Of a DNA stretch of 64,000 bases, positions 2,508 to 24,858 are shown piece by piece. The stretch is taken from contig CAWGIW010000004.1 of assembly GCA_963822825.1 (NCBI GenBank), positions 73,872 to 137,871 of the forward strand. Direction: 5' to 3'. Under the pieces are notes generated by a model. The model did not search any database and had not been told where the DNA came from. It saw only the letters and a program-made list of their open reading frames with translations. The DNA is from an uncultured Actinomycetes bacterium. Its GTDB lineage: Bacteria; Actinomycetota; Actinomycetes; Streptosporangiales; Streptosporangiaceae. The position numbers were made by a program, and so were the translations under genes. Positions within the stretch are counted from its first letter, which is position 1. The number at the start of each line of letters is the position of its first letter.

Positions 2508-4751
2508 GTGGTTCACCACGGAAAGGTGGACGTCGTGGCGAGGAGGCTCCCCCGGCGTGCGCCCGCAGCGCTGGCTGCCGGGCTGGCCGTGGCGTGCGTC
2601 GCGCTCACGGCGGCGCCGGCCGTTGCCGACCAGCCCCGCCATGAGGAATGGTGGCTCAGCGCGCTGCACGTGACGACGGCATGGGAATCCAGCAAGGGTT
2701 CTGGTGTCACGGTTGCCGTGCTTGATACCGGTGTCGATTCAACGCAGCCTGACCTGGCCGGCTCGGTGGTCACCGGACCGGACTTCAGCGGGTCCGGGCG
2801 GCAGGCAGGTGCCCCATTCTGGGGTATCGATGGCACGGCGGTCGCGAGCCTGATCGCGGGCCACGGGCACGGCACCCAGGATGGTGACGGCATTACCGGG
2901 GTCGCTCCGGAGGCCAAGATCCTCTCCGTCCGGGTCACCCTGGAGGGCAACGATCCGGATCTGGCCAACGCGGGCATTGTTTCCGGCCTGCCGGGTTCCA
3001 TCGCCAACGGCATCCGCTACGCCGTCAATCATGGCGCCCAGGTCATCGACCTGCCACTGGACCCGGCGGTGCTGGCGATCGGCACCCCGAAAGGCAACGC
3101 GGGCGGCGCCGCCACCTCGGGCGGCCGTCCCCCGGGTGGCAGCCGGACCGAACGCGCGGCGGTGGCCTATGCGCTGAGCAAGAACGTGGTCCTGGTAGCG
3201 CCCGCGGGTGACGGAGGAGCAGGGACCGATCTCATCAACTACCCGGCGGCGTACCCCGGAGTGATCTCGGTGGGCGCCTTCAACCAGAGCTTCACCAAGG
3301 CCCCGTTCACCAGCCACCGGCCCTATGTCACGGTCACCGCGGCCGGGGATGGCGTCGAGGCGGCGACGCCGTCCGGGTATTCAATGCTGCACAGCACCAG
3401 CGCGGCGAGCGCCGTGGTGGCCGGCATCGCCGCACTGATCAGGGCGCAGTTCCCCACGCTGAGCCCCGCCCAGGTGACGAGCGCGCTCACCCAGAGCACC
3501 TCCTTCCGGCGGCCCGGCGGCCAGCAGAACGGATCGGGCTTCGGCACCGTCGACGCCCAGGCCGCCCTGTTGCAGGCGGCCCGGATCAACGCGACCGTCC
3601 CCGCCCGCTCAGGGTCGGGGGGCGCCGTCGTGGCTCCGACGTCCCCGCCCGTCCATGTGCATAGCGCGGGCATCTGGGGAACGCTGCGGTACGCCGCCTT
3701 CGGCCTGGCCGTCCTCCTGGTGCTGGGCCTGCTCGGATTCGTCTTCAACGGCCGCGTCCGGCGGCGGCGCGTTCGGGCCGCCCGGCTCGCACCGCTGCGG
3801 GATGTGCGGCGGACCGCCGTCCGCGCCCAGCCGAATTTCTCGGCCGTGCCCCCGGTCGCCGGACCCCAGTTCGGGACGGCTCAGTTCGGCGGGAACGCGT
3901 TCGCGGACGCCAAGTTCGGTCAGGCCAAGTTCGAGGAGTCCCAGTACGGGCAGAGCCCGTTCCCCGGAGATCAGTACGCGGAAACTCCGTTCCCCGGAGA
4001 CCAGTACACCGAGACCCCGTTCCCCGGGGATCCAGGGGCCGAGGCGCCGTTCCCGGGAGATCCGGTGGCCGAGGCGCCGTTCCCTGGGGGGCCGCTGGCG
4101 CAGACTCCGTTCCCGGAGGATCCAGCGGCTCCGGCGCCGTTCCCGGAGGACTCGTTGGGGGATACGCCGTTCCCCGGCACCCAGGTGTCCGGGACCGGCC
4201 CGTTCCCCGCGATCCAGCCTGGAGGCCCCCCCGACCGCACCGCGGGCAGCCCGCCCCGCGCCATCGCTCCAACTCCCAGGTCGCACGTGGTGCGCTCGCC
4301 ACGGATATCGGGCCATCCGCCCTGGGATCCAGCCCAGAAGCCGGACGGGGAACTCCCGTGGGCCGTCGGCCCCCCGGTCAAGGCGGTCGGACGATCGGCC
4401 GCGGCGCGCCGGGTGATCCCCACCGGTGCCCAGCCCTGGGGCCCGGCTGCCCACAGTGACCGGTCGCCGGATGACCCGGATCTGGGTGGGGCCGACCTGG
4501 ACAGCCCGGGATCGGAAAGCATGTTCCCGGACAACGTGGAACTAGGCAGCCGGGTACCAGGCAGCATGCCGTTGCCCGCCCCGGACTCCGGCCACGGCGG
4601 GTCAGCCGAGGACGCCGACGATGACGCTGAGGAAGGCAGCAGGCTCTACGTGTGGAACCCGGCCGATACGACGAAGCCCTACGCACGGCCTCACGAGGAG
4701 AGTCCGGCCGGAAACCGCCGCCGGGACCGGAATAGCCCCGGACCGGAATAG
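2508..4751 (+). CDS. S8 (subtilase) family, mycosin-like membrane-anchored protein with degenerate active site and long Pro-rich repeat tail
   Basis: Signal-like N-terminus, then AVLDTGVD (Asp box). The His box reads IDGTAVASLIAG (H to D), the oxyanion box reads APAGDGG (N to D), and the Ser box reads HSTSAASAVVAG. A TM helix (FGLAVLLVLGLLGFVF + RRRR) is followed by a ~330-aa tail with PFPGD decapeptide repeats. Confidence 0.8.
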   Translation: MVHHGKVDVVARRLPRRAPAALAAGLAVACVALTAAPAVADQPRHEEWWLSALHVTTAWESSKGSGVTVAVLDTGVDSTQPDLAGSVVTGPDFSGSGRQAGAPFWGIDGTAVASLIAGHGHGTQDGDGITGVAPEAKILSVRVTLEGNDPDLANAGIVSGLPGSIANGIRYAVNHGAQVIDLPLDPAVLAIGTPKGNAGGAATSGGRPPGGSRTERAAVAYALSKNVVLVAPAGDGGAGTDLINYPAAYPGVISVGAFNQSFTKAPFTSHRPYVTVTAAGDGVEAATPSGYSMLHSTSAASAVVAGIAALIRAQFPTLSPAQVTSALTQSTSFRRPGGQQNGSGFGTVDAQAALLQAARINATVPARSGSGGAVVAPTSPPVHVHSAGIWGTLRYAAFGLAVLLVLGLLGFVFNGRVRRRRVRAARLAPLRDVRRTAVRAQPNFSAVPPVAGPQFGTAQFGGNAFADAKFGQAKFEESQYGQSPFPGDQYAETPFPGDQYTETPFPGDPGAEAPFPGDPVAEAPFPGGPLAQTPFPEDPAAPAPFPEDSLGDTPFPGTQVSGTGPFPAIQPGGPPDRTAGSPPRAIAPTPRSHVVRSPRISGHPPWDPAQKPDGELPWAVGPPVKAVGRSAAARRVIPTGAQPWGPAAHSDRSPDDPDLGGADLDSPGSESMFPDNVELGSRVPGSMPLPAPDSGHGGSAEDADDDAEEGSRLYVWNPADTTKPYARPHEESPAGNRRRDRNSPGPE
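3957..4229 (+). repeat. 30-bp in-frame tandem repeat (about 9 copies) encoding PFPGDxxAEx decapeptides
   Basis: ccgttcc recurs at 3957, 3987, 4017, 4047, 4077, 4107, 4137, 4167 and 4200. Confidence 0.9.
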
Positions 4752-11862: not shown

Positions 11863-14800
11863 TTACGGTTCGGCGGTGGTTTTTATCTGCAACGGCGCCA
11901 CGGTTATCTGGTCAATGTTCGGCGCGGAACTCGATCGCAGCGGCTGCCCAACCCCACTGCCCGAGTAGATGACCCCGATCGTGGTGCCGTCGTAGTTGTA
12001 CTGCTGGTTGGCGATGAACTTGATGGTGTTGGCGCCGCGCCGGAGCATTACCGGAATCGTGAGATTCCAGAACTGATTCCAGTTGAAGGTGCTAGCGAAG
12101 TTGACATGGAATGTGGGCGCGCCGTTGACGCTGATGTCGGCTGGGTCGGTCATTAGGTCCGGGTTGTAATGCGTGGCCACTACCTGCTGGTTGTTGGCGA
12201 ACCGGACGGTCATCCCGTAGGTGCCGGTCACCGGCGCGCGCACGGTGAGGGTCAGTGAGTTAGCTGGGCCGTCGCCGATACCCGTGACTACGCCGCCGTT
12301 GGCCTGGCTGTAGCTGTTGTTAACCTTGGCCGTGCCGGTCAGCGTGCCGTCCTCGGCCTGGTAGGTAGTGACGTCCGGCTGGACGGCCGGACTCGTGGAG
12401 TCGACCGGGGTGACGGTCAGCTTGTCGAGCGTCACCTCGCCGCCATCGCCGGTGACCGCGACCTTGTTGATGCCCGCGCTCAGGTACACCCGGTCCCTCT
12501 GGGTGGACCAGTTCCGCGTGCTGGCACCGCCCAGCCGTCCGTCCAGGGACAGCGTGTTGACGGCGACCCCGGCCGTTCCCCCGCCCTTGGAGCGGAAGGC
12601 CAGATCCGAGTAACCATCGGCGGCGGAGTACACCCAGAACGTCGCGCTCTGGCCACGGCTCAGGTCGGCTGCCCCGGCGCCGGACTGGCCCTGCGCGCGG
12701 TAATCGGTGGTGGCGCCTTCGAGGCTGGCCTGCTCCGCCTCGTAGATGGTCGAGTCCTGGACGGCTGGATCGTTGAGCCGAAGGTCGATCTTGTTGATGA
12801 TGGCGTCGCCGTTCGTCGCGGCGCCGTTGGCCCCGGTGGTTGACAAGCTGATCTGGTGCTGGCCCGCGGTCAGGTGGACGGTGGTGTCGACGTGGTTCCA
12901 GATCACCCAGTTGTATCCGACCGGCAGCCAGACCTCCTGTGGGTTTGCGCCGTCGGTCCGGACGAAGATGTTGGTCGGGCCGGACACGTCGGTGGCGGCC
13001 GAGTTGCTCCCGTCGAAGATGGACAGGTTGTAGTCACCTGTCCGTGGCACATCCACGTTGAACGTGATGACCGTGGAAGAACCCGTCCGCAGCCCGCCCA
13101 CATCCTGCTCGCCAGCGGTGGCGAACCCGCCCAGGTTGCTGGGTGTCCCTTCGGTGTTGATGTTCCAGCCGGTGCCGGTGAGCGTGGCCTGCGAAGCCAG
13201 GTAGCTGTGGAGCCAGGTGTTGTCCGCCGGGGTCGCCGAGCCGGTCCCGCCCGGGGCCAGGATGACCTCGTAGGCGTCCATCGTGGGCGGTGACGCTGGC
13301 CTAGAGATGATCGTCCCGTTACGCCCGTTGCCGGACGAGTCGATCGCGGTGGCACCGCCAGTCTCGTCGAATTTGTACCACGCGACGTTGCCGGCGCCCG
13401 GCTGGCCGCCCGCGAGGGCGGCCACCTGGGCGGCGGTCAGCGCACTGTTGTAGATCTGGAAGTCGTTGACCGTCGCGGCCAGGTAAGGGTCGCCCGGGTA
13501 CTGCGACCGCCCGATCCAGTCCTGGGTCGTGTCACCGAGAGCTGACGGGTTCAACGTCATGTTGGTGTTGGTACCGACCGCCGTGCCGTTGACATACAGC
13601 GTCCCGGTCGTGCCGGAGAGCGTCACCGCCACGTGCGACCAGGTGTTGAGGGGCAGTTCCCCGGGCCGTTGATCTGCTGCTCGCCGCCGCCGCCGCTGGT
13701 GGTGATGGCGAACCGCAGCGGGCCGCCGCCCGCGTTCAGCGTCAGGAACATGTAGTCGTTGGTGCCGGTGCCGAAGTCGAACACCCGTGACCAGGCCGTG
13801 TCCTGTGAGGGATTGACCCACGCCGAGATGGTGAAGTCGCTGAGGCCCTGCGTGATGCCGGACGGCAGGTTCACGTATTCGTTGTTGCCGCACAGGCTCA
13901 GCGCGTTGCCGATCTTGCCCGCGACCCTGGGTCCGGTGGCGGTGCACGACGCGACGTTGCCGCCGGCCCCGTCCCCCTGGTCGCCGCTGGTCACCGGGAG
14001 CGTGATCGAGCCGGTCGCCCCGACCCGCACGTCCGAGTCGAACGTCCGGGTCGGCTGCGCCGCCGCACCCGTCATGCCGCTCCACCGGTCTTGCAGGACC
14101 GTGGCATGCACGGTGCGGCCGAAGATGGCCGGGTCGATGTGGTTGACGGTCACGCCCTCCGGCCCGGCCGCCCCGCCGCCGAGGATGATCCGCGCCTGCT
14201 TTTTCGCCCGGTCGAGGGTGGCCAGTCCCTGCAGCGTGTCGTCGGTGTTGCCGTGCGGCGGGGTCACCGCCACGGTGCTGCCGGTCAGCGAGGCGTACCA
14301 GTTAAAGAGCCACCACTGGGCGTTCGGGATGTTCTGCTGCGCCACCGAGTCGCCCAGCGACCCGTTGATGTTCCAGTACGCGAGATCCCCGTTGACCTTC
14401 TCGGCCTCGAGTGCCGACAGCCACGCGACCATCTGCCCGGGGCTGGTCAGCTGGTACCGGGCCGCGTACTCGTCGAGGTTGACCGGCAGGTGACGCGGCA
14501 TCCCGACCACGGCTTCCAGCGCCCGGTAAGCCGCCACGTCGGTGCGCACGGTGGAGGCGACCTGCAGCTCATGCCACGTCATAACGTTGGGCAGGCACTT
14601 GTTCGCCATGCAGAACTGCAGGAACGAGCCCAGCGCGGCTGGGAAGAAGCTGCTGAAATTCGGCCCGGCGATCCGCGCCTGCGGCCACAGACCCTTGATG
14701 AAGTTGAAGGTCTGCAGCCATTCGGCCTCGAACGCGGCGAGCGTGGTGGCGTTGGTGGTCAGTCCCGCGAACCAGTTGCCGTCCGGCTCGTTGTAGGGCA

Positions 14801-15254
14801 CCAGGATGATGCGGTTCTTGTAGGGGGACGTCAGGACCTGCTCGACCTCGGTCTTCATGTAGCCCTGGTACTGCGCGTAGCTGGTCCGCTCGTATGGGAA
14901 ATTGCGGTATACGTCGGTCATGTAGATAAAGACATCCCGGCCGCCGCTGGCGGCGAACGGCTTGGCGATCTCGAGCGCATCCGACCCCGGATGCTGCTGG
15001 CCGTCCTGCGCCTTCGTGTCCGTGGTCTGCAGGCCCATGCCCTGGATCAGGTTGTTGCTCGGCACGCCCTGGTCGTAGATTCCGTACAGGCTGCCCGACG
15101 CGCCGCCGGCGACCGGTCCGGTCGAGGCACCCAGATTCACGACGAGGTCATTGGGGGCGGTCGTGGCGCCTCCTGATGGTGCCGCCGCCGTGGTCAGGAC
15201 TAATCCCGACGCGGCCAGAATGACCGCCGCCGCGGTGGCTAGCTGCTTCCTCAT
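11863..15254 (-). pseudogene. large secreted glycoside hydrolase (clan GH-A-like catalytic domain + LamG/ConA-like domain + several CBM6/35-like modules), one apparent frameshift near 13659
   Basis: ORFs 13623..15254 and 11863..14085 join at ...GGGEQQINGPG|ELPLNTWSHVAVTLSGTTGTLYVNG if one G is added in ccgggg. Other supporting elements are a signal peptide, the NEPD and TWHEL motifs, and repeated YEAEQA / YQAEDG CBM starts. Confidence 0.7.
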
Positions 15255-16405: not shown

Positions 16406-17332
16406 TCAGGCGGGCAGGGGTTCGCCCTTGAATACTTCCCGGGTGTGCCAGGACACATGGACAGCCGCTGGAACGGCCGTGCCGGGTCGCGGCGCCAGCC
16501 CTCGCCCGTGCAGGTCATACACCGCGCGGCCGGCCGGCGTTCGTGCGCTGAAGGCGGCGGACACCTGGACGCGGAGCGTCGCGTCCAGGCCCAGAACGCC
16601 CAGATCGAACAGTTTGTGGTGCAGAACGCACAGGGCCATGCCGTTGTCGAGGGCGTCCGGGCCGTCGAAGGCGAACCACCGCACGTGCGCCGCGTCGATC
16701 CCCATGCTGGCCCCGGCGAGTTGCCCGTCATAGCCGCAGAACGCGCACTGCCGGTCCCATCCGCGCAGTACGGCGGCCCGCCATCCGGGGCTGCGCCGCC
16801 GCTCAGCCAGCGCGGCATCGGGTCCCGGTAGAACGCCGCTGGCACCAAGCACCGCTTCAGGATCCAGGCCGGCCGCCTCCAGGACATCTGCCGCAACCGT
16901 CTCGGGGAAGTTGCTCAGCACCAGTTCCCGGGCGGCCGCGCTGACCAGTTGCGGACTGGCCAGCAGCGCGGACTCGACCGACGCCTCGAACTGGCCGACG
17001 ACGTGCCGCTCGGCGAGAGGCGTGACCAGATCCATCTGCACGTCCTGGTCGAGCACCCAGACCCCGTCCGCGCGCAAGCGGGTAAAGGGATAGGCGGCGC
17101 TCTGCGCCCGGCCGGTTCCCGACGGCGGCCCGAACTCCGCGATCAGGTCGGCCAGGGCCGCCTCGGCCGAGGACCACGGCAGTTCACTAGACCCCGTCGT
17201 GGCCAGACGGCCCAGGGCCAGCAGGACAAGGAGCGGCTTGTGCGGGGATCGCCGCCCACGCTGCCGGTGCTGGCGCAGCGACCCGAGCCGGGCAAGCACA
17301 TCCGCCGCCTCGCTGCCGGTGGGGGAATGCAC
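16406..17332 (-). CDS. HNH endonuclease with N-terminal modified-DNA reader domain; resembles short SBD-HNH (phosphorothioated-DNA-binding) type IV restriction enzymes
   Basis: N-terminal SPHKPLLVLLALGRL and AAYPFTRLRADGVWVL. The C-terminal HNH region is CAFCGYDG...IDAAHVRWFA...DNGMALCVLHHKLFD. Confidence 0.65.
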   Translation of the reverse strand: MHSPTGSEAADVLARLGSLRQHRQRGRRSPHKPLLVLLALGRLATTGSSELPWSSAEAALADLIAEFGPPSGTGRAQSAAYPFTRLRADGVWVLDQDVQMDLVTPLAERHVVGQFEASVESALLASPQLVSAAARELVLSNFPETVAADVLEAAGLDPEAVLGASGVLPGPDAALAERRRSPGWRAAVLRGWDRQCAFCGYDGQLAGASMGIDAAHVRWFAFDGPDALDNGMALCVLHHKLFDLGVLGLDATLRVQVSAAFSARTPAGRAVYDLHGRGLAPRPGTAVPAAVHVSWHTREVFKGEPLPA

Positions 17333-17429
17333 TCACCAAGCCTCCCACCCCCAGCGGGCCGAAGACCGCTAGGGGCAGTTGCCGCCCGTCCAGCGATCCC
17401 AGGGCGACGCCAGACGGCCTACGCGCCGG

Positions 17430-18110
17430 TTAAGCAGGCGGCCGGACCTCCACCAGCGGTGCTCCGCGGTCGGCGAACCAGCGCTGAAGGTCGGCGCCAT
17501 CGAGAAGGTGCGGCGAATCTGTGCCGACATCGATTGGCCCGTCGACCATCCCCTTGGTCTCCTCCACCAGGCCGCCCGCGAGTCGGGCCTCATCAAAGCC
17601 AGTTGAGTAACGGCTCTGGCCAAACGTGCATTGACGCAGATCGGCGCCCCGCAGATCCGCGCCGGTAAGCCGGGCTTGGCCGAACTGGGTCTCACGGAAA
17701 TCGGCTCGCCGGAGATCGGCATCCTCGAACTCGGACCGGTCAAGGTCCGCGCCGCGCAGGAACGCGTCCTGGGCGTCACAGGCGCGTCCTTCAACCTTCC
17801 GCAGGTCGCAGTGGGACAGGTCGGCGCCACGCAGGACCGCCCCGATCAGCCAGGCGTGGTAAAGATCCGCTCCCACGAGACGCACGCCGCTCAGGTTGGC
17901 GTCACTGAGTTCCGCTTCCACAAGGTCGAGACCGGACAGGTCGGCTCCCCTGAAGTCAAGGCCCCCGCCGTTGAGCAAGGACGCAACCGTCCGCGAGTCG
18001 TCGGGCAGTTTCTCGAGGGAGTCGAAGTAGTCTTCGAGCCTCCGGCGCGCGGCCGGGTCGTCGGGCCAGCGGCGCACGTTCTCGCGTGAGCGACCGTGCG
18101 TGATGGTCAT
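17430..18110 (-). CDS. pentapeptide-repeat protein; candidate immunity protein of the upstream toxin
   Basis: Consecutive A(D/N)Lxx pentads run across residues ~55-180 (GADLSGLDLVEAELSDANLSGVRLVGADLYHAWLIGAVLRGADLSHCDL...). The ATG at 18110 overlaps the toxin stop (ATGA). An alternative start lies at 18137. Confidence 0.8.
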   Translation of the reverse strand: MTITHGRSRENVRRWPDDPAARRRLEDYFDSLEKLPDDSRTVASLLNGGGLDFRGADLSGLDLVEAELSDANLSGVRLVGADLYHAWLIGAVLRGADLSHCDLRKVEGRACDAQDAFLRGADLDRSEFEDADLRRADFRETQFGQARLTGADLRGADLRQCTFGQSRYSTGFDEARLAGGLVEETKGMVDGPIDVGTDSPHLLDGADLQRWFADRGAPLVEVRPPA

Positions 18111-19381
18111 GATCCCCACACTACCTTTCCCTGCCATTCGGGATGGTCGGCCACGACCTGCTGCAACTGGGCCAAGCGGCCCGGCGACATCCCGTCGGGA
18201 TCGAGCATGACATTCTCGCCGATCCCCAGCGACTTATTGATCATCGATGTGAAACCTCCGGCAGATTGGGGGTTGCTGATAGGTCGCCCCGCATCGGCCT
18301 TGTAGCTGGGCTGGAAGTCAGGTGAGCTCTTGACGTCCCATCGCTGGCCGACGCCGTCAAAGAATTCACCTTGGTCTTTTCCGAAAGCATCGAGTGGCGC
18401 GCGGCTGATCGGTCCCGGAACCTGGCCGTCGGCCTCCAATTGCAACCCAACCTGCGCCTCCCGCACGGATGCGGGTCTAGATGCCCCACCGTGTGCGGGG
18501 TCTTTCGAGAGTTCCGAAATGCGGGCCTGGTATTCCGGCGTGCCGGGCGTGTACTGCGGGTCGGAGGAGGGTGAAGTACCGCCCGGTCCGCTATCGGCGT
18601 TCACCGGATCGACATGATCGTCACCGGCCGCGTGGCTCGCCAGGTCGCCCGCCGACGCCATCATCAGGCCGCCGCCGGCCACCACCCCGGCCGTAGTGAG
18701 CACGTTGATCGGGACCCCGGCAACGGCGCCCACGCCCGTGGCGTCGAGGACGAAGCCCGCACCGTCGCCGATGGCGCTCACCCCGGCGAGCATGGCGCCC
18801 CCGGCCATTCCGAGGCCGTCGAGCGGATGATTGATCATGGCATTGCCGAGCGAGGCCAGATCGTCGAGCGCGCTGGCGCCGACCTGCTCGGCGTCATGCC
18901 CGAGCCCTTCGAAGAAGTGACCGACGTCCGACCAGAACCCGGGCCTGCGCGGGGCCTGGTCGCGGGCCTGGCCCACGACGGCGTTGGCGGTGCCCGCGGC
19001 GTCGGCCAGCTGACGGCGAGCATTCTCGAGGGTGGACTTCGCGGCGTTCTTGTCGCCCTGATTCCACTGCTGGATCGCGGCGCCCGCCTGCTGCTGCGCC
19101 CACTCCAGCGTCGGAATGTACCGGTCGAGCGCGCTGGCAGCGTCCTGGAAACAGCGGCCCGCGATCAGCCACCGCTCCGGTTCGCCGTGGAAGCGCTGCC
19201 GGAAGGCATCGCCCGCCGCGCCACTCCAGCCGCCGGTGGTATCGATGCGCTTCAGGCCGTTCCCAGCCTCGGTGAGTACGGTGCTGTAGCCGTACATTTT
19301 GCCTGCCACCTGGGCGATCGAGCCCGCATTCCCTGGGACTAAGTTCTGGGGGTCGCTGGTCTCGCCGAGCTGCATCACCAT
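18107..19381 (-). CDS. T7SS-type polymorphic toxin: WxG-containing N-terminal secretion-signal domain, Gly/Ala-rich linker, C-terminal PD-(D/E)xK-like (restriction endonuclease fold) toxin module
   Basis: The N-terminus reads LGETSDPQNLVPGNAGSI...GGWSGAAGDAFRQRF...LDRYIPTLEWAQQQ, and the linker reads GMAGGAMLAGVSAIGDGAGFVLD.... The C-terminus reads REAQVGLQLE...FFDGVGQRWDVKS. The start (19381 or 19375) overlaps the upstream stop. Confidence 0.7.
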   Translation of the reverse strand: MVMQLGETSDPQNLVPGNAGSIAQVAGKMYGYSTVLTEAGNGLKRIDTTGGWSGAAGDAFRQRFHGEPERWLIAGRCFQDAASALDRYIPTLEWAQQQAGAAIQQWNQGDKNAAKSTLENARRQLADAAGTANAVVGQARDQAPRRPGFWSDVGHFFEGLGHDAEQVGASALDDLASLGNAMINHPLDGLGMAGGAMLAGVSAIGDGAGFVLDATGVGAVAGVPINVLTTAGVVAGGGLMMASAGDLASHAAGDDHVDPVNADSGPGGTSPSSDPQYTPGTPEYQARISELSKDPAHGGASRPASVREAQVGLQLEADGQVPGPISRAPLDAFGKDQGEFFDGVGQRWDVKSSPDFQPSYKADAGRPISNPQSAGGFTSMINKSLGIGENVMLDPDGMSPGRLAQLQQVVADHPEWQGKVVWGS

Positions 19382-19707
19382 TTCGAGGCCGCCGGATCGG
19401 TACCAGTGCGGCTCCGCAGGATCCCGCTGAGGTGCGCGATGACCGTCTTTTCGGCCTTCGCATAGGTCGCGGCCGACCGGGTGAGGCGGCTCGCGACCTG
19501 CTTGGCGTCGTTCGTCAGATGCTCGACGCCGATCTCCCACCGACCGCAGAAATCGGACACGGTGCCGGCCAGGGCATCGTCTCCGTAATCCGCCTCCGAA
19601 CTCCCGATGTCGCTGACCTTATTATTCTGAAGATCGCTCATCGCCCCGTTGACGCCCGCCGACGCCTGTACTAAGGCACCGAGGTCCACCTCGAACCCAT
19701 CGGACAT
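19375..19707 (-). CDS. EspC/WXG100-like small helical protein (type VII secretion associated)
   Basis: 110 aa: MSDGFEVDLGALVQASAGVNGAMSDLQNNKVSDI...FCGRWEIGVEHLTNDAKQVASRLTRSAATYAKAEK. A GGGGAGA RBS is present. This is the first gene of the toxin operon. Confidence 0.6.
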   Translation of the reverse strand: MSDGFEVDLGALVQASAGVNGAMSDLQNNKVSDIGSSEADYGDDALAGTVSDFCGRWEIGVEHLTNDAKQVASRLTRSAATYAKAEKTVIAHLSGILRSRTGTDPAASKW

Positions 19708-19828
19708 CTCGTCTCCCCACGTCTATGGACGCCCGTGCGCCAATCGTGCCCGCCCCGAACACCCCCGTGCACGGCAGCCGACACGCCCTTCTACGCTAAC
19801 CAATTGCTCGAAGCCGGACAATTAGTTC

Positions 19829-19950
19829 GGCACACCCCGGCCTTGCCCCCGGCACACCCCGGCCTTGCCCCCGGCGCACACCGGCCTTGCGCGTGCGCTC
19901 ACTTGCCTTGCCCCCGGCGCACACCGGCTTGCCCGGCGCACACCGGCCTA
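19829..19950. repeat. 22-bp tandem repeat (GGCACACCCCGGCCTTGCCCCC x2 perfect plus ~3 degenerate copies) in a divergent intergenic region
   Basis: The perfect copies are at 19829-19850 and 19851-19872. Degenerate ggcgcacaccggc(c)ttgcc units follow. Confidence 0.85.
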
Positions 19951-20097
19951 CCTCGGGCCCCGGCGGTTCACTGCTCCCGATCTGGGATTCAGGCGCCTGC
20001 CCGAAGCGTGAGCGCCGGGCACCCGACCGCGATGAGCTGGACCGGCAAGACGCCCGTTAGGCCGTCAAGATGTCCGGGCTCCTCTACCATCGGGCGC

Positions 20098-21408
20098 ATG
20101 TCGCCTGTGTCCCGTGGCCGCAAGGCTAAGTCCAAGACCAAAACCAAGAAGCGTGCCTCCGGACCCCCCAGCTCGGCCCGCCTCGACCCCAGTGACCTGC
20201 TGGTTAGGGCCAGGCTGTCGGCCTTCGAGGGGACGCAATCTCTGATGGGGCCGCCGGAGCGACCAGGGTGGTTCGATGCGTCGATCAAGAATGTCCTCGA
20301 TCAGGCCGGCGTCGTCATGGCCGCGCACGGGCCGCGGGAACTTGAACAGGCGGCAGCGGAGCTGGTCGGTGCCGAGCTGTACCGCACCGTCCATGACGAG
20401 CGCCACGGGGTGTGGTTCGACTGGCTGTTTGAGGAACTCGCGGACGCCGCGGCGGGCAGGGTCAAAGAAGAAGCCGACCGCCAGGATGAGGCGTGGCAGG
20501 CGCCATGGCGGCTGCTGTACGGTCTGACCTCAATCGGCTCACCCCCGCTGCGGTCTAGCGCGCAGCGCGCCTTGACGGAGGCCCGGAAAGGGCTGCCCGC
20601 CGGTGCGGCGAAGCAGCCGGACTGGCTACGGCTGCTCCCGAAGATCGCCGCGACCGGCCAGGTGTTCGAGATGCACGATGCGTATGGCACCCGCTTCGCG
20701 GTGATCGCGGGCTTCTGCTACCCAGGCGGCACCGACCCGTCGGTGTTCTTGTTCGACATCGACGCTTGCGGGTTCGTCCGCCTGGCCCGCGCCGGTGTGT
20801 TCGACGACGTCGAGCAGGCGGCCACCGCGTGGCGGGCGCAACTGGGCGGGGGCGCCCGCGGCGCCCGCCCCAGCCCGGTAGAGACGGCCGAACGCCTGTA
20901 CTGCCTCGTTCACCTGGATGAGGAGGAAGGCCTTCTCGACGGTTCCGAGCCGCGGGCGGTGATGGACAACTGGTTCCGGGCGAACCGGCGCTCGCAGGAT
21001 CTGGCGGACTCACTTCGCAAACGGGGGATGCCGCTGCCCGAGGCGAAGTCGCTCTACGACGACATCGACACGGTGCCGACCGAGGAGGCGTTCGCTAGCT
21101 GGTACCTGGGGCGGCACGGCCGCCCGCCGGATCTCGATGCGGTCGGTGCCTTGGCCGAAGAATGGCTGGAGGGGGCACTGCCCGGCACCTGGCATGCCGC
21201 GTCGCCGCACCGGGCCCGCTTCCAGCTGAACTTGATCAGCGACTGGATCCCAGGCCGGGTCACCGTGGGCGCCAAGGCGCTATTGCCGGAATGGGTTCGG
21301 TGGAACGGCGAGCAGTCCGGCCTCTCCGGGCCTCTCCTCGACGACGCGGTCGCGGCCGCCAGCGGGGATCCTCAGCCGTCGGGAGATTGCGCTGAAGCCA
21401 TCTCCTGA
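20098..21408 (+). CDS. hypothetical protein (437 aa) with Lys/Arg-rich N-terminus
   Basis: An in-frame ATG at 20098 gives MSPVSRGRKAKSKTKTKKRASGPP.... The body has normal, non-low-complexity composition. Upstream ORF sequence overlaps the tandem repeats and is unlikely to be coding. I recognise no motif. Confidence 0.55.
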   Translation: MSPVSRGRKAKSKTKTKKRASGPPSSARLDPSDLLVRARLSAFEGTQSLMGPPERPGWFDASIKNVLDQAGVVMAAHGPRELEQAAAELVGAELYRTVHDERHGVWFDWLFEELADAAAGRVKEEADRQDEAWQAPWRLLYGLTSIGSPPLRSSAQRALTEARKGLPAGAAKQPDWLRLLPKIAATGQVFEMHDAYGTRFAVIAGFCYPGGTDPSVFLFDIDACGFVRLARAGVFDDVEQAATAWRAQLGGGARGARPSPVETAERLYCLVHLDEEEGLLDGSEPRAVMDNWFRANRRSQDLADSLRKRGMPLPEAKSLYDDIDTVPTEEAFASWYLGRHGRPPDLDAVGALAEEWLEGALPGTWHAASPHRARFQLNLISDWIPGRVTVGAKALLPEWVRWNGEQSGLSGPLLDDAVAAASGDPQPSGDCAEAIS

Positions 21409-21459
21409 TCGGGCCACGAAACCGCCGCGCCGATGCCAGTCGCCGTGCGAATTAGCTGG

Positions 21460-22242
21460 TCATTCCCGGTCAGGCCGCTTCCAAGCAGCTTGGTCCCGGC
21501 GGGGACAGCCCCGGCCCGTCCAAGGGCAGATCTCAGGGTCGTAGTCATGGCCTGAGAGATCGCCCAGGAACTTGGCGTTGTCGCCGAAATCTCTATTGAT
21601 CCAGCGGGCAACCACGAGCACGGAGACGCGTTCCGCTCCCGTCTTATGCAACGAAAGGACGGCCGACCGCGCACGGCCTCCCCCGACCCAGGTGTCATCG
21701 ATGAGCAGTACATGGGAACCCGCCGGTAAGCGGGCATTCGCGCTGAAATGCTGCGGGTTGACGTCCCGGGGGAAGGGGGCTCTGGCCGCCGCCACCAGGG
21801 TGACCTCGGGCCTGATTACTAAGTGGGCGACGATCTCATGGAGGGGGTGCTCTCCTGGCTTGGCCGGCAGCGATGGCACCGTCGCCCAGTGAGTGACGGG
21901 GGCACCGGCGAGCGCACCCGGGCAGCCGACGTGCCTCGACAGCGCGAGAAGGACGAGCAGGGTCACGATGGTGCGGTGCTCAGCCAGAGGTGGCCGCGCC
22001 TTATAGCCGCGCATCACGTAGCCCGACTGCTGGCCCGCGACCGCGTAGGTCAGGAACGCGACGGGACCAGCCAGGTCGCCGCGGCGGCAATGTTCGCATT
22101 GGTAGCAGCGCTCATAGCCAGCGACCGGCGTCGCGCAGACGGCGCACGTCACGCCGCCACGCCGGACCGGATTCCGGAGGTAGCCGCCTGCCCTGGACAC
22201 CAGGGCAGCGCTCAGCCTCGCGATTGCCTCCTGGTCGGGCAT
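21460..22242 (-). CDS. ComF-family phosphoribosyltransferase-like protein (Zn-ribbon + PRTase)
   Basis: 4-Cys ribbon CAVCATPVAGYERCYQCEHC and PRPP loop HVLLIDDTWVGGGRARS. The start lies 2 nt after the DprA-like stop. Confidence 0.75.
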   Translation of the reverse strand: MPDQEAIARLSAALVSRAGGYLRNPVRRGGVTCAVCATPVAGYERCYQCEHCRRGDLAGPVAFLTYAVAGQQSGYVMRGYKARPPLAEHRTIVTLLVLLALSRHVGCPGALAGAPVTHWATVPSLPAKPGEHPLHEIVAHLVIRPEVTLVAAARAPFPRDVNPQHFSANARLPAGSHVLLIDDTWVGGGRARSAVLSLHKTGAERVSVLVVARWINRDFGDNAKFLGDLSGHDYDPEICPWTGRGCPRRDQAAWKRPDRE

Positions 22243-22244
22243 GC

Positions 22245-23192
22245 CTACGCCGACGTCAGGCGACGTAGCTCGGCACCGACGAATTCGCGTTCGGCGATCA
22301 ACTGATCGACGACGTCCAGGACCGAGTGGAGGCCGCTGGCCACGTGAACGCCGGGGCGGCTGACGAGAGCGCGAGCCCAGTCATTGCGCTCCACCACCAG
22401 GTCCGTAAGGATCACCGGCCGGCCGTGCTCGACCGCCAGTCGCGCCTGGACACGGGCGCCGCTGTGCTCGCCCGCCTCGACCACGATGGTGGCCAGTCCG
22501 TACCCGGACATCGTGGCGTTGCGCATCGGGAAGTTGTGCTTCTGGGGCGGCGCGTCCGGCCAGAACTGGGAAAGCAGGAGGCCGCGAGCGGCGATTTCCT
22601 CCTGCAGGTCCCGGTTCTCCGGCGGATAGGACCTGTTGATGCCGGTTCCGATGATGGCGACGGTGCGCCCCCCGGCGGCCAGGGCCGCGCGATGGGCCGC
22701 CGCGTCGATGCCCAGCGCCAGCCCGGCGACCACCGTCACCGCGCGGGCGGCAAGTTCGCGGGCCACACCGCCGGCGATGGCCAGACCCCGGGCCGATGCC
22801 TTCCGTGAACCCACGACGGATACCGCGGAATCCTCCCTCAGGAGGGCTCCGCGGGCGAAGAGGACGGGCGGTGCCTGATGAATCCCGCGGAGCCGGGCCG
22901 GGTAGTCCATGTCGAGGATGGTCACGAGCGTCCAGCCCTGCTGCGCCCAGGCATCAATCTCATGAGCCGCCGCATCGAGGGGGCCGGGCTCGCCCGCAGG
23001 ATTCATCAGCACCGCGGGCACCGTCCGGTGCCAAAGCGCCAGGGCACTCCCGGCCTCGAGGACGTCGGCGGTAATCTCAGCCCAGCGCATACCCGCCGGC
23101 CGCGCCCGGAGAAGAGCGACGAGCGCCGCTTGCTCCCGCCGCGCGCTCGCGTCCATGGTGCCAGAGTACGAGGAAGGCCCCTTCTCCTGCAT
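22245..23192 (-). CDS. DprA/Smf-like (SLOG superfamily) DNA-processing protein homolog
   Basis: VSVVGSRKASARGL, VVAGLALGIDAAAHRAAL, AIIGTGINRSYPPENRDL, LLSQFWPDAPPQKHNFPMRNATMSG. The ATG at 23192 is preceded by GAGGTGG. Confidence 0.8.
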   Translation of the reverse strand: MQEKGPSSYSGTMDASARREQAALVALLRARPAGMRWAEITADVLEAGSALALWHRTVPAVLMNPAGEPGPLDAAAHEIDAWAQQGWTLVTILDMDYPARLRGIHQAPPVLFARGALLREDSAVSVVGSRKASARGLAIAGGVARELAARAVTVVAGLALGIDAAAHRAALAAGGRTVAIIGTGINRSYPPENRDLQEEIAARGLLLSQFWPDAPPQKHNFPMRNATMSGYGLATIVVEAGEHSGARVQARLAVEHGRPVILTDLVVERNDWARALVSRPGVHVASGLHSVLDVVDQLIAEREFVGAELRRLTSA

Positions 23193-23304
23193 GCCACCAC
23201 CTCGAAGCGTCAACACGCACCCCGGCCGAACACACGTCGGCTGAACACGTTGACTGAACACACGTTCGGCCATCTCATCGTAATCCGACCGCAGGAGGAA
23301 CGGG

Positions 23305-24858
23305 ATGAACGGCGCGCAGGCACTGATCCGCACGCTGGCCGGGTGCGGCGTGGAGGTGTGCTTCAGCAACCCGGGTACCTCGGAGATGCACTTCGTCGCG
23401 GCGCTGGACACCGTCCCGCAGATGCGCGGTGTGCTGTGCCTGTTCGAGGGGGTGGCGACCGGTGCGGCGGACGGGTACGGCCGGATGACGGGGCGGCCGG
23501 CCGCGGCGCTGCTGCACCTGGGACCGGGGCTGGCGAATGGCCTGGCCAACCTGCACAACGCGAGGCGGGCCCGCACTCCCCTGCTGGCCGTCATTGGTGA
23601 TCACGCCACGTATCACAAGCGGTTCGACGCACCGCTGGAGTCGGATATCGACGCCCTGACCGGATCGGTCTCGGCCTGGACCCGCCGCCCGGCGCGCAGC
23701 GAGGACCTGGCCGCGGACGCCGCGGAGGCGGTCGCCGCGGCGATGAGACCGCCCGGCGGGATAGCCACCCTCATCCTGCCGGCCGACGTGTCCTGGTCCG
23801 AGGGCGCCGAACCAGCGCCCCCGCTTCCCGTCCGCGCACCCGCACCCGTCCCCGAGGACGTGGTCGGCTCGGCCGCGATGGCGCTGCGCAGCGGCGAGCC
23901 GTCGGTGATCCTGCTCGGCGGGGCCGGGGTGCGGCGCCCCGGCCTGGAGGCCGCCAGCCGGATCGCCCAGGCCACCGGCGCCCGGCTGCTGGGCGAGACC
24001 TTCCCGGCCCGGCTCGAGCGCGGCGCGGGCATCCCGGCCCTCGAACGGCTGGCCTACCTGGCCGAATTCGCGACCCAGCAACTCGCCGGGGCGCGGCACC
24101 TGATCCTGGCCGGTGCCCGCGCACCGGTCTCCTTCTTCGCCTACCCGGGCCAGCCCAGCTTCCTCGTGCCCGCCAACTGCCAGGTCCATGTCCTGGCCGA
24201 GGCGGGAGACGACGTGCCCGGGGCGCTCGCCTTGCTCGCCCACCTCATTGCCTCCAACGACAAGCCGTTGCCGCAACCGCCGCAGCGCCCCGCGCTGCCG
24301 GATGGTGATCTCACCGGGGAGACCGCCGCTGCCGTCATCGGCGCGCTGCTGCCGGAGGGCGCCATCGTCTCCGACGAGGCCAACACGTCCGGGTTCTGGC
24401 TGCCCGGAGCCACCGCGGGCGCGCCCCCGCACGACTGGCTCACCCTGACTGGAGGTGCGATCGGCCAGGGGCTGCCGCTGGCCACGGGGGCCGCCGTCGC
24501 CTGCCCGGAGCGCAGCGTCCTCGCTCTGGAGGCGGACGGCAGCGCCATGTACACCATCTCCGCGCTGTGGACCCACGCGAGGGAGCAACTGGACATCACC
24601 ACGATCATCTTCAGCAACCGCTCCTACGCCATCCTCAGCATGGAGTTGGCGCGGGTCGGCGCGGCAGCGACCGGGGAGGCGGCCCGCAGCCTGCTCGACC
24701 TGTCCCGGCCCACCCTCGACTTCACCGCCCTGGCCAGCGGCATGGGTGTCCCAGCCAGCCGGGCCGCCGTGGCCGCGGAATTCGCCACGCAACTGCGGCG
24801 GGCGCTCACGGAGCCCGGGCCACACCTGATCGAGGCCGTCCTGGCTCCGTCCGCATAG
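23305..24858 (+). CDS. thiamine diphosphate-dependent enzyme (acetolactate synthase large subunit-like)
   Basis: MNGAQALIRTLAGCGVEVCFSNPGTSEMHFVAAL...GYGRMTGRPAAALLHLGPGLANGLANLHNA; C-terminal GAIGQGLP...EADGSAMYT...IFSN. Confidence 0.85.
   Translation: MNGAQALIRTLAGCGVEVCFSNPGTSEMHFVAALDTVPQMRGVLCLFEGVATGAADGYGRMTGRPAAALLHLGPGLANGLANLHNARRARTPLLAVIGDHATYHKRFDAPLESDIDALTGSVSAWTRRPARSEDLAADAAEAVAAAMRPPGGIATLILPADVSWSEGAEPAPPLPVRAPAPVPEDVVGSAAMALRSGEPSVILLGGAGVRRPGLEAASRIAQATGARLLGETFPARLERGAGIPALERLAYLAEFATQQLAGARHLILAGARAPVSFFAYPGQPSFLVPANCQVHVLAEAGDDVPGALALLAHLIASNDKPLPQPPQRPALPDGDLTGETAAAVIGALLPEGAIVSDEANTSGFWLPGATAGAPPHDWLTLTGGAIGQGLPLATGAAVACPERSVLALEADGSAMYTISALWTHAREQLDITTIIFSNRSYAILSMELARVGAAATGEAARSLLDLSRPTLDFTALASGMGVPASRAAVAAEFATQLRRALTEPGPHLIEAVLAPSA

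Follow-up and report, generated by a model that had tools for sequence, protein, structure and literature searches.

The closest characterised relative of the toxin described here is CdiA-CT(E479) of Burkholderia pseudomallei (with its immunity protein CdiI(E479) in Protein Data Bank (PDB) entry 5J4A; Pfam PF18664), a Mg2+-dependent tRNase of the PD-(D/E)XK fold with the active-site residues E204, D229, D243, H275 and D285 (PMC9086364). Two Burkholderia toxins of this fold are tRNases. CdiA-CT(E479) is the C-terminal domain of a polymorphic toxin delivered by contact-dependent inhibition (CDI) through a type V secretion system (T5SS). The present study concerns a cassette of three genes on the minus strand of a stretch of 64,000 nucleotides (nt), in the following the window, from an uncultured Actinomycetes bacterium of the Streptosporangiaceae (GenBank assembly GCA_963822825.1, contig CAWGIW010000004.1, positions 73,872 to 137,871). 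Gene 1 codes for a small helical protein, gene 2 for a polymorphic toxin that is probably exported by a type VII secretion system (T7SS), and gene 3 for a pentapeptide-repeat protein, the probable immunity protein of the toxin. Like CdiA-CT(E479), the putative toxin of gene 2 is a C-terminal domain; unlike it, its family is associated with T7SS, extracellular contractile injection system (eCIS), HINT and VgrG modules, and the immunity partner, a predicted pentapeptide beta-helix, is unrelated to CdiI(E479).

Polymorphic toxins were catalogued by Zhang et al. 2012 (PMC3482391). The catalogue divides the Tox-REase toxins into ten families, has over 50 numbered Imm families besides several named ones, and lists HEAT, ankyrin and leucine-rich repeat (LRR) proteins as immunity proteins; the word 'pentapeptide' is absent from the first 300,000 of the 357,715 characters of the text. 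Tox-REase-2 is described with the motifs E, DG, [DE]xK, T and W, with an occurrence in Actinobacteria and with fusions to WXG and PrsW, and no immunity protein is listed for it. The gene 2 toxin is alike in motif pattern, actinobacterial range and WXG/PrsW fusions. An identity with Tox-REase-2 was considered for its motif list and rejected, as the Pfam model of that family does not match.

The pentapeptide-repeat proteins Qnr, MfpA, AlbG and McbG have DNA gyrase as their site of action, where they counter poisons that are small molecules or peptides. Gene 3 shares with them the PF00805 fold family, the character of an acidic rod and the apparent protection against a toxic agent; it differs in being paired with a protein toxin domain, in scoring far below the thresholds of the Qnr and MfpA models, and in having conserved N- and C-terminal extensions of its own. 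Jablonska et al. 2017 (PMC5714182) reported YjbI-like pentapeptide genes adjoining GH-E His-Me finger toxins and found no other immunity gene. These pairs also join a nuclease toxin to a neighbouring pentapeptide gene, but the toxin has the His-Me finger fold, the context is a type VI secretion system (T6SS) and no role was assigned to the repeat protein. A preprint of July 2026 on Tse6/Tsi6a of Stenotrophomonas rhizophila (bioRxiv 10.64898/2026.07.13.738213) mentions a structurally similar T7SS toxin of Mycobacterium chelonae, DYE20_11250, and beside it DYE20_11255, a 'pentapeptide repeat-containing' antitoxin resembling Tsi6a; the pentapeptide link and its mechanism are not analysed in the text. 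Tse6 and DYE20_11250 resemble the gene 2 toxin by description, as a rare domain without assigned function, present in Actinomycetes and in further phyla and joined to delivery modules of various kinds, and Tsi6a and DYE20_11255 resemble gene 3 as immunity proteins annotated or modelled as pentapeptide-repeat proteins. The preprint may describe the same toxin family, a likeness drawn from description and not from sequence. An earlier reading of the window, made from the sequence only, had not known the pairing of toxin and pentapeptide protein to be characterised. This holds in so far as a literature search found no paper that analyses or tests such a pairing, and is to be qualified by the M. 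chelonae pentapeptide 'antitoxin' of the preprint.

Co-occurrence of the toxin domain with a pentapeptide-repeat gene

The window toxin domain (Table 1) alone had no match in Pfam, in NCBIfam or, by phmmer, in the PDB sequences, and a word-indexed search retrieved just 19 close relatives. A profile search run exhaustively on 1.84 billion cluster representatives yielded 603 proteins at E <= 0.001, 223 of them at E <= 1e-10. In 152 of 166 retrieved family proteins the domain ended at most 10 residues from the C-terminus. It was fused behind WXG100_2, WXG100, PT-HINT, PT-TG, eCIS_core, T7SS_signal, PrsW and VgrG-like Phage_GPD/Phage_base_V modules. Source names of the members describe the N-terminus alone or read 'hypothetical'; named members belong to Paenibacillus ('phage baseplate assembly protein V') and to a metagenome-assembled genome (MAG) of the Kofleriaceae. 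A scan of one genome per species gave 41 loci in Nocardia, Actinomadura, Actinoallomurus, Rhodococcus and an uncultured Actinomycetota MAG; the phage collection contained no homologue. As read from these sequences, a trafficking N-terminus is combined with an exchangeable C-terminal toxin domain, the organisation of a polymorphic toxin.

Sixty-seven related loci were surveyed: 41 close loci, 25 distant loci and one annotated Paenibacillus plasmid. The close loci are those with a complete toxin domain and comprise 39 of the 41 loci of the genome scan and two metagenome contigs (L001, L002). A full-length homologue of gene 3 (41-75 % identity, tblastn) was found directly downstream of the toxin in all 41, with any toxin N-terminus. 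Its putative start, picked as the start codon nearest to the toxin stop, was at most 7 nt away from this stop in each of them, and 30 of the 41 presented the same 4-nt overlap as the window. The two remaining loci of the genome scan, which lacked a gene 3 homologue, were a truncated remnant of the domain (L042) and a contig end (L043). In the distant loci (toxin domain about 35-50 % identical; three from contig look-ups, 22 from a metagenome scan with a 10-sequence subset of the alignment) a pentapeptide open reading frame (ORF) on the same strand was directly downstream in 25 of 25 cases, and the downstream proteins tested passed the PF00805 gathering score (10/10). On the plasmid NZ_CP133769 of P. 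polymyxa (L079), a VgrG-like toxin with this domain has behind it a 'pentapeptide repeat-containing protein', then a displaced 40-amino acid (aa) remnant of a GH-E nuclease and an ankyrin-repeat gene (L079 6426-8186). Displaced toxin-tip and immunity cassettes are usually arrayed in this manner.

More distant homologues of gene 1 and of the T7SS_signal domain were also obtained with other toxin domains, and these had other downstream genes: Ntox28 was followed by CdiI_3, and an unassigned domain by a 144-aa gene. On this sequence comparison, gene 3 behaves as the immunity gene of a polymorphic toxin does, being located directly 3' of the toxin and changing together with the toxin domain. The assignment of gene 3 as the immunity protein of the toxin is well supported by gene order, because the pair was present in 41 of 41 close loci, 25 of 25 distant loci and the plasmid, and other toxin domains have other downstream genes. 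The sequence-only reading had put the pentapeptide gene in the immunity position and proposed to look for such a gene behind homologous toxin domains elsewhere; the survey bore out both. The pairing in 67 of 67 loci points to a new role of the pentapeptide-repeat family as toxin immunity.

Some of the surveyed loci presented further features. In Actinomadura atramentaria (L042, 6001-6249) just the toxin-domain residues 2-84 were recognisable and no pentapeptide gene came after them, probably a degenerate or recombined toxin tip. In L001 (4202-5474) the toxin was called as two genes of 288 aa (T7SS_signal) and 157 aa (toxin domain), probably by a frameshift, with the pentapeptide gene intact; a Transposase_20 gene lies about 1.1 kb upstream, with a 90-aa gene and the homologue of gene 1 in between. 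The VgrG/DUF4280 cluster of the P. polymyxa plasmid contains upstream a second 'pentapeptide repeat-containing protein' gene (L079 1-167), and the plasmid echoes the GH-E/pentapeptide neighbourhood reported in 2017.

Remote homology of the toxin domain to a PD-(D/E)XK tRNase

Residues are numbered within the 150-aa domain. In an alignment of 40 diverse toxin domains D20, E34, E42, R53, D68 and W74 were invariant, and D75, K77 and D120 were conserved to at least 90 %. An AlphaFold2 model based on a 19-sequence alignment (predicted local distance difference test (pLDDT) 94.2, predicted template modelling score (pTM) 0.87) presents a helix at 29-43, short strands at 51-52 and 66-67, a strand at 73-78, a helix at 100-112, a strand at 115-120, a helix at 126-137 and a strand at 146-148. 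In this prediction E34 is on the first core helix, D68 just past strand 2 and D75-x-K77 on strand 3. In the canonical PD-(D/E)XK arrangement helix 1 carries an acidic residue, an Asp is placed at the second strand and (D/E)xK on the third; the order of the predicted secondary-structure elements fits this core. The sequence-only reading had seen a PD-(D/E)xK signature and had spaced it D-x7-D-V-K, one residue too wide: the spacing is D-x6-D-V-K.

With the 40-sequence toxin profile, an hmmsearch against all PDB sequences had a sole match, 5J4A chain A, 'tRNA nuclease CdiA' (E = 0.043). Comparison by hhalign of the toxin family with the CdiA-CT(E479) family, represented by a small alignment of members that carry PF18664, gave a probability of 90.6 % (E = 1.3e-6, score 43.2, 124 columns). 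As controls, reversed alignments scored 13.2 and 11.7, and 30 column shuffles reached at most 13.9 with a probability of at most 0.4 %. Both families have the same order of core secondary-structure elements, the catalytic E204, D229 and D243 of E479 are paired with E34, E65 and D75, and both possess an invariant Arg within an 'R-A-P' motif. The gene 2 family differs in keeping the canonical K77, where E479 has a Met, and in lacking H275 of E479, which is aligned with the non-catalytic S110; membership in the CdiA-CT(E479) family at the level of Pfam or HMMER was not observed. The restriction-endonuclease-fold reading of the toxin domain is supported by this remote homology; on sequence comparison it is a separate family outside PF18664 and the Pfam Tox-REase families. 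Its substrate may be RNA rather than DNA, because the nearest characterised relative, CdiA-CT(E479), cuts tRNA. The TA271 toxin of E. coli, of the same fold, is a DNase.

Other matches were not used for the assignment. CdiA_C (PF18451) had a single sub-threshold match in one member (E = 0.09), and Ntox37 matched one member (E = 0.011). Ntox1 matched two of 83 full-length members and none of 40 isolated domains, and is for the latter reason probably located outside the toxin domain. The A2 toxin profile had as sole match in the PDB a designed helical repeat protein, which was hit in the N-terminal extension and regarded as spurious. Several weak matches in BFVD were named endonuclease, VRR-NUC, Vsr or restriction endonuclease, which can serve as a hint only.

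The repeat protein and its probable mode of action

The sequence-only reading gave the length of gene 3 correctly as 226 aa and described the protein as consisting almost entirely of repeats; the repeats are confined to about residues 50-170. They are flanked by conserved non-repeat segments, about 45 aa at the N-terminus with the family signature R-x2-V-x-R-W-P and about 55 aa at the C-terminus with the tail LLDG-x-L-x2-WF-x3-GAP-x-V. The number of coils follows from four pentapeptides per coil. With respect to the NCBIfam models, gene 3 stayed below the cut-offs for Qnr (40.8 versus 240 bits) and MfpA (35 versus 360 bits). Across the loci the divergence of the repeat protein is faster (mean distance 0.52 versus 0.38 for the toxin); the distance matrices of both correlate with r = 0.68, a value confounded by phylogeny. 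A function of the basic DLRKV-GR loop as active-site plug was considered and set aside: the basic residues are not conserved in distant members.

Gene 1 and the T7SS_signal N-terminus of gene 2 would form a constant export module, presumably for a T7SS whose genes are located in another part of the genome. The last 150 residues of gene 2 would be the exchangeable and toxic part, a metal-dependent PD-(D/E)XK nuclease of a sister family to the CdiA-CT(E479) tRNase with E34, E65, D68, D75, K77, E115 and D120 as candidate catalytic residues. By translational coupling the immunity protein should be made alongside the toxin. In the producer cell the beta-helix of gene 3, with about six coils, would bind the toxin domain and block its substrate cleft, where it may occupy the place of a nucleic-acid duplex. 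To this reading, an export module, a PD-(D/E)XK nuclease toxin and a directly binding pentapeptide immunity protein, we assign a probability of about 0.6. Neutralisation by direct binding over the active-site cleft is the favoured mode by analogy: in complex structures of PD-(D/E)XK CDI toxins the immunity protein binds over this cleft (PMC9086364).

Several results weigh against this reading. The Pfam models of Tox-REase-1 to -10 and PF18664 matched neither the window protein nor any of the 83 full-length members and 40 isolated domains, and the similarity to Tox-REase families for which the sequence-only reading had suggested a search was not found with these models. Foldseek comparison of the toxin model gave nothing significant in the PDB (best E = 0.03, template modelling (TM) score <= 0.34), with 5J4A absent among the top 50 matches listed, and nothing significant in BFVD (best E = 0.07). 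The earlier claim of a PD-(D/E)xK signature is carried by the conserved E...D...(D/E)xK constellation and the hhalign link to a solved toxin, and finds no significant counterpart in the Foldseek comparison. In 37 of 42 members the toxin domain has an acidic isoelectric point (pI) of about 4.2-5.3. This is unusual for a non-specific nucleic-acid binder, renders the binding of an acidic nucleic-acid mimic less evident and does not favour a simple electrostatic mimicry by gene 3. The immunity protein of E479 is unrelated to pentapeptide repeats (PMC9086364), so that the toxin fold does not predict the type of inhibitor. A scan of 20 ORFs of the window, 10 on the flanks of the cassette and 10 from among the largest of the remainder, found no T7SS core gene (Ecc, MycP), in agreement with the sequence-only reading.

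How the repeat protein would occupy the cleft can be viewed in two ways, which we hold to be equally tentative. The pentapeptide beta-helix may imitate the nucleic-acid substrate of the PD-(D/E)XK toxin, a DNA duplex or the acceptor/T-arm helix of a tRNA. Such a mimicry is plausible by analogy, and the combination of a rod-shaped acidic repeat fold with a nuclease-type partner speaks for it. Alternatively, in the same cassette and with the same immunity role, the repeat protein may be a mere rigid scaffold that makes idiosyncratic contacts, e.g., by the DLRKV-GR-C loop, and imitates neither DNA nor RNA. A scaffold would agree with the acidity of both partners, with the strongly conserved non-repeat loop with basic residues that is kept in the close clade, and with the HEAT (Tox-REase-7), ankyrin (Tox-AHH) and LRR scaffolds in the immunity list of Zhang et al. 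2012. No result speaks directly against it; the basic loop is not conserved in distant members, and the rod shape and size of the beta-helix are compatible with mimicry.

That the toxin domain has another enzymatic or binding activity than that of a nuclease, the repeat protein still being the immunity protein, appears rather unlikely to us. Apart from the missing matches to Pfam nuclease models and in Foldseek, the alignment of the catalytic H275 of E479 with S110 is in line with such an activity, as is the ADP-ribosyltransferase prediction that the 2026 preprint gives for the possibly related M. chelonae toxin; the authors of the preprint themselves found no ADP-ribosyltransferase motif. The nuclease reading is favoured over it by the hhalign link to a solved PD-(D/E)XK tRNase, far above the controls, and by the constellation of acidic residues and a lysine on the expected secondary-structure elements.

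Two further explanations are very improbable. The repeat protein could shield a cellular target in the way Qnr, MfpA, McbG and AlbG shield DNA gyrase, with the toxin as a topoisomerase poison. All functionally characterised bacterial pentapeptide-repeat resistance proteins act on gyrase or topoisomerase (PMC7897471 and PMC10886550), and gene 3 has a weak partial similarity to the Qnr and MfpA models; its scores are nevertheless far under their thresholds, the toxin has homology to a nuclease fold, and the fast divergence of the repeat protein would not be expected if it bound a highly conserved target. An equally improbable role as accessory factor, chaperone or co-secreted partner, as in some T6SS VgrG/DUF2169 clusters, with the immunity gene elsewhere, has precedents in the T6SS accessory proteins of the pentapeptide type reported by Kim et al. 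2021 and in the GH-E neighbours without assigned role (PMC5714182), and is contradicted by a pairing that tracks the toxin domain and not the secretion module (T7SS_signal, WXG100, HINT, eCIS or VgrG-like N-termini), that is lost when the toxin domain changes, and that involves the only conserved downstream gene.

Organisation of the cassette and its export module

The window DNA has a G+C content of about 65-75 %. The three minus-strand ORFs of the cassette (19707-17430) overlap at their stop and start codons, and the chain described in the sequence-only reading was correct in both overlaps: the TGA of gene 1 (19377-19375) is overlapped by all three candidate starts of gene 2 (TGATG, 19373-19377), and the TGA of gene 2 (18109-18107) overlaps the ATG of gene 3 (ATGA, 18107-18110). 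The motifs GGWSGAAGDAF, REAQVGLQLE and FFDGVGQRWDVKS it had quoted are all present in gene 2. In close relatives, gene callers chose the start that makes gene 2 424 aa long and lets it overlap gene 1 by 7 nt. The ATG of gene 1 is preceded by a Shine-Dalgarno-like run, GGGGAGA. A promoter scan revealed no promoter-like site, and a terminator scan a single terminator-like site at chance level, located inside gene 2 on the opposite strand.

Table 1 Features of the cassette in the window; toxin-domain residues are numbered within the domain
Feature	Position	Strand	Basis
Whole cassette, discrete conserved block: about 137 nt upstream region, gene 1, gene 2 and gene 3	17415..19844	-	limits from nucleotide homology
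Gene 1, 110-aa helical protein, putative EspC/WXG100-like partner of the toxin N-terminal domain	19375..19707	-	ORF, overlap with gene 2, homologues, AlphaFold2
Gene 2, polymorphic toxin, 424 aa from ATG 19381; alternative starts GTG 19378, ATG 19375	18107..19381	-	ORF, relatives
Gene 2 residues 3-114, T7SS_signal domain with WxG motif (GGWSGAAGDAF)	19040..19375	-	PF21725, E = 4.7e-33, 115.5 bits versus cut-off 27
Gene 2 residues ~165-262, hydrophobic Gly/Ala-rich central region	18596..18889	-	read from sequence
Gene 2 residues 275-424, 150-aa C-terminal toxin domain, unannotated family, PD-(D/E)XK-like constellation	18110..18559	-	profile searches, AlphaFold2, hhalign
E34 of the toxin domain, helix preceding the core motif	18458-18460	-	conservation, AlphaFold2
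Core motif D68-x6-D75-V-K77 (FFDGVGQRWDVK), predicted beta2-beta3 hairpin	18329..18358	-	conservation, AlphaFold2 strands
Gene 3, 226-aa pentapeptide-repeat protein, probable cognate immunity protein	17430..18110	-	PF00805, E = 1.7e-36, 123.8 bits versus cut-off 20.2
Gene 3 residues ~50-170, ~24 pentapeptide repeats, ~6 coils, broken by a conserved DLRKV-GR-C-A segment	17601..17963	-	Pfam, NCBIfam, family consensus

Nucleotide homology of 80-89 % to four loci in at least two other genomic contexts was confined to the cassette. The homologous block begins about 120-137 nt upstream of gene 1 and ends at the stop codon of gene 3 (L003, L051) or 15 nt past it (L047, L049); beyond gene 3, no other downstream gene was conserved among the compared loci. 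Because the homology has the limits of the cassette across contexts, the three genes are taken to move as a unit.

The helical N-terminal WxG domain noticed in gene 2 by the sequence-only reading corresponds to the Pfam T7SS_signal domain, entitled 'Putative T7SS secretion signal domain' in Pfam. We infer export by a type VII system from this domain name, the WxG motif and the EspC-like partner. The hydrophobic middle of gene 2 is possibly a membrane-insertion or translocation segment, judged by its composition, and comparable hydrophobic stretches occur in Nocardia relatives bearing other N-termini. A 747-aa Peptidase_S8 (subtilase) gene at window 2508-4751, 13 kb from the cassette and with no Ecc genes nearby, was not taken as evidence for a T7SS; the mycosins of T7SS are shorter.

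Gene 1 had been labelled EspC/WXG100-like at 110 aa. The length is correct; gene 1 itself had no match in Pfam or NCBIfam and has no WxG motif, and EspC or WXG100 models matched weakly in its homologues. Among 43 of these, 19 had a weak match to PF10824 EspC (best E = 7.1e-5), six to WXG100, four to DUF6317 and four to DUF6507. Functional names within the 69 homologues were one ApbE, likely a mis-annotation, and one UniRef 'Excreted virulence factor E...'. The AlphaFold2 model has two helices, 9-28 and 44-98 (pLDDT 81.8, pTM 0.53), and had no match in Foldseek. Homologues of gene 1 were always located upstream of a T7SS_signal toxin, regardless of the toxin domain. The label of an EspC/WXG100-like helper appears reasonable and is weakly supported.

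Neighbouring genes

Upstream of the cassette, about 1.67 kb between the gene 1 upstream region and a 260-aa gene (window 19845-21513) are absent from L047 and L049, two otherwise syntenic contigs of soil metagenomes with 116 bp in this place. This stretch carries a plus-strand ORF of up to 557 aa (19735-21408) that had no Pfam match. The 260-aa gene (21460-22242) is Cys-rich, had no Pfam match and is conserved beside the cassette in L047-L050. A DprA-like gene (22245-23594; DNA_processg_A and a weak match to SLOG LDcluster4) also adjoins the cassette side in these four contigs. Instead of serving competence, the pair of DprA-like and Cys-rich genes could form a conflict system centred on nucleotides.

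On the other side, about 100 nt downstream of gene 3, a gene for a 308-aa HNH_2 endonuclease is present (window 16406-17332). At its position the syntenic L047-L049 have an SMC_N/AAA_15 ATPase gene on the other strand, and L050 has no called gene. The downstream flank is apparently a variable, defence-island-like spot, because the HNH_2 gene is replaced by the SMC_N/AAA_15 gene in relatives. Further away, the overlapping minus-strand ORFs 13623-15254 and 11863-14085 matched the Laminin_G_3 profile at 2-75 and 72-151, respectively. By this division they look like one secreted carbohydrate-binding protein split by a frameshift near 13623-13700, either a pseudogene or a sequencing error.

Implications

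Pentapeptide-repeat proteins are abundant, and their only well-understood bacterial function is the protection of gyrase from poisons. An invariable pentapeptide immunity partner of a toxin offers a second, genetically tractable context for the function of this fold, and the compactness of the pair, with 150 aa in the toxin domain and about 220 aa in its partner, makes a direct test for nucleic-acid mimicry feasible. If the mimicry is true, pentapeptide-repeat proteins would have a second general role besides the protection of topoisomerases, and polymorphic toxin systems their first immunity class based on mimicry, one that is conserved in Actinomycetota, Bacillota and Myxococcota alike. With the pairing, the catalogue of polymorphic toxins gains a nuclease-like toxin family not annotated so far and a class of immunity proteins, which would help to annotate many of the 'hypothetical' C-termini found in Nocardia, Actinomadura, Rhodococcus, Paenibacillus and soil metagenomes.

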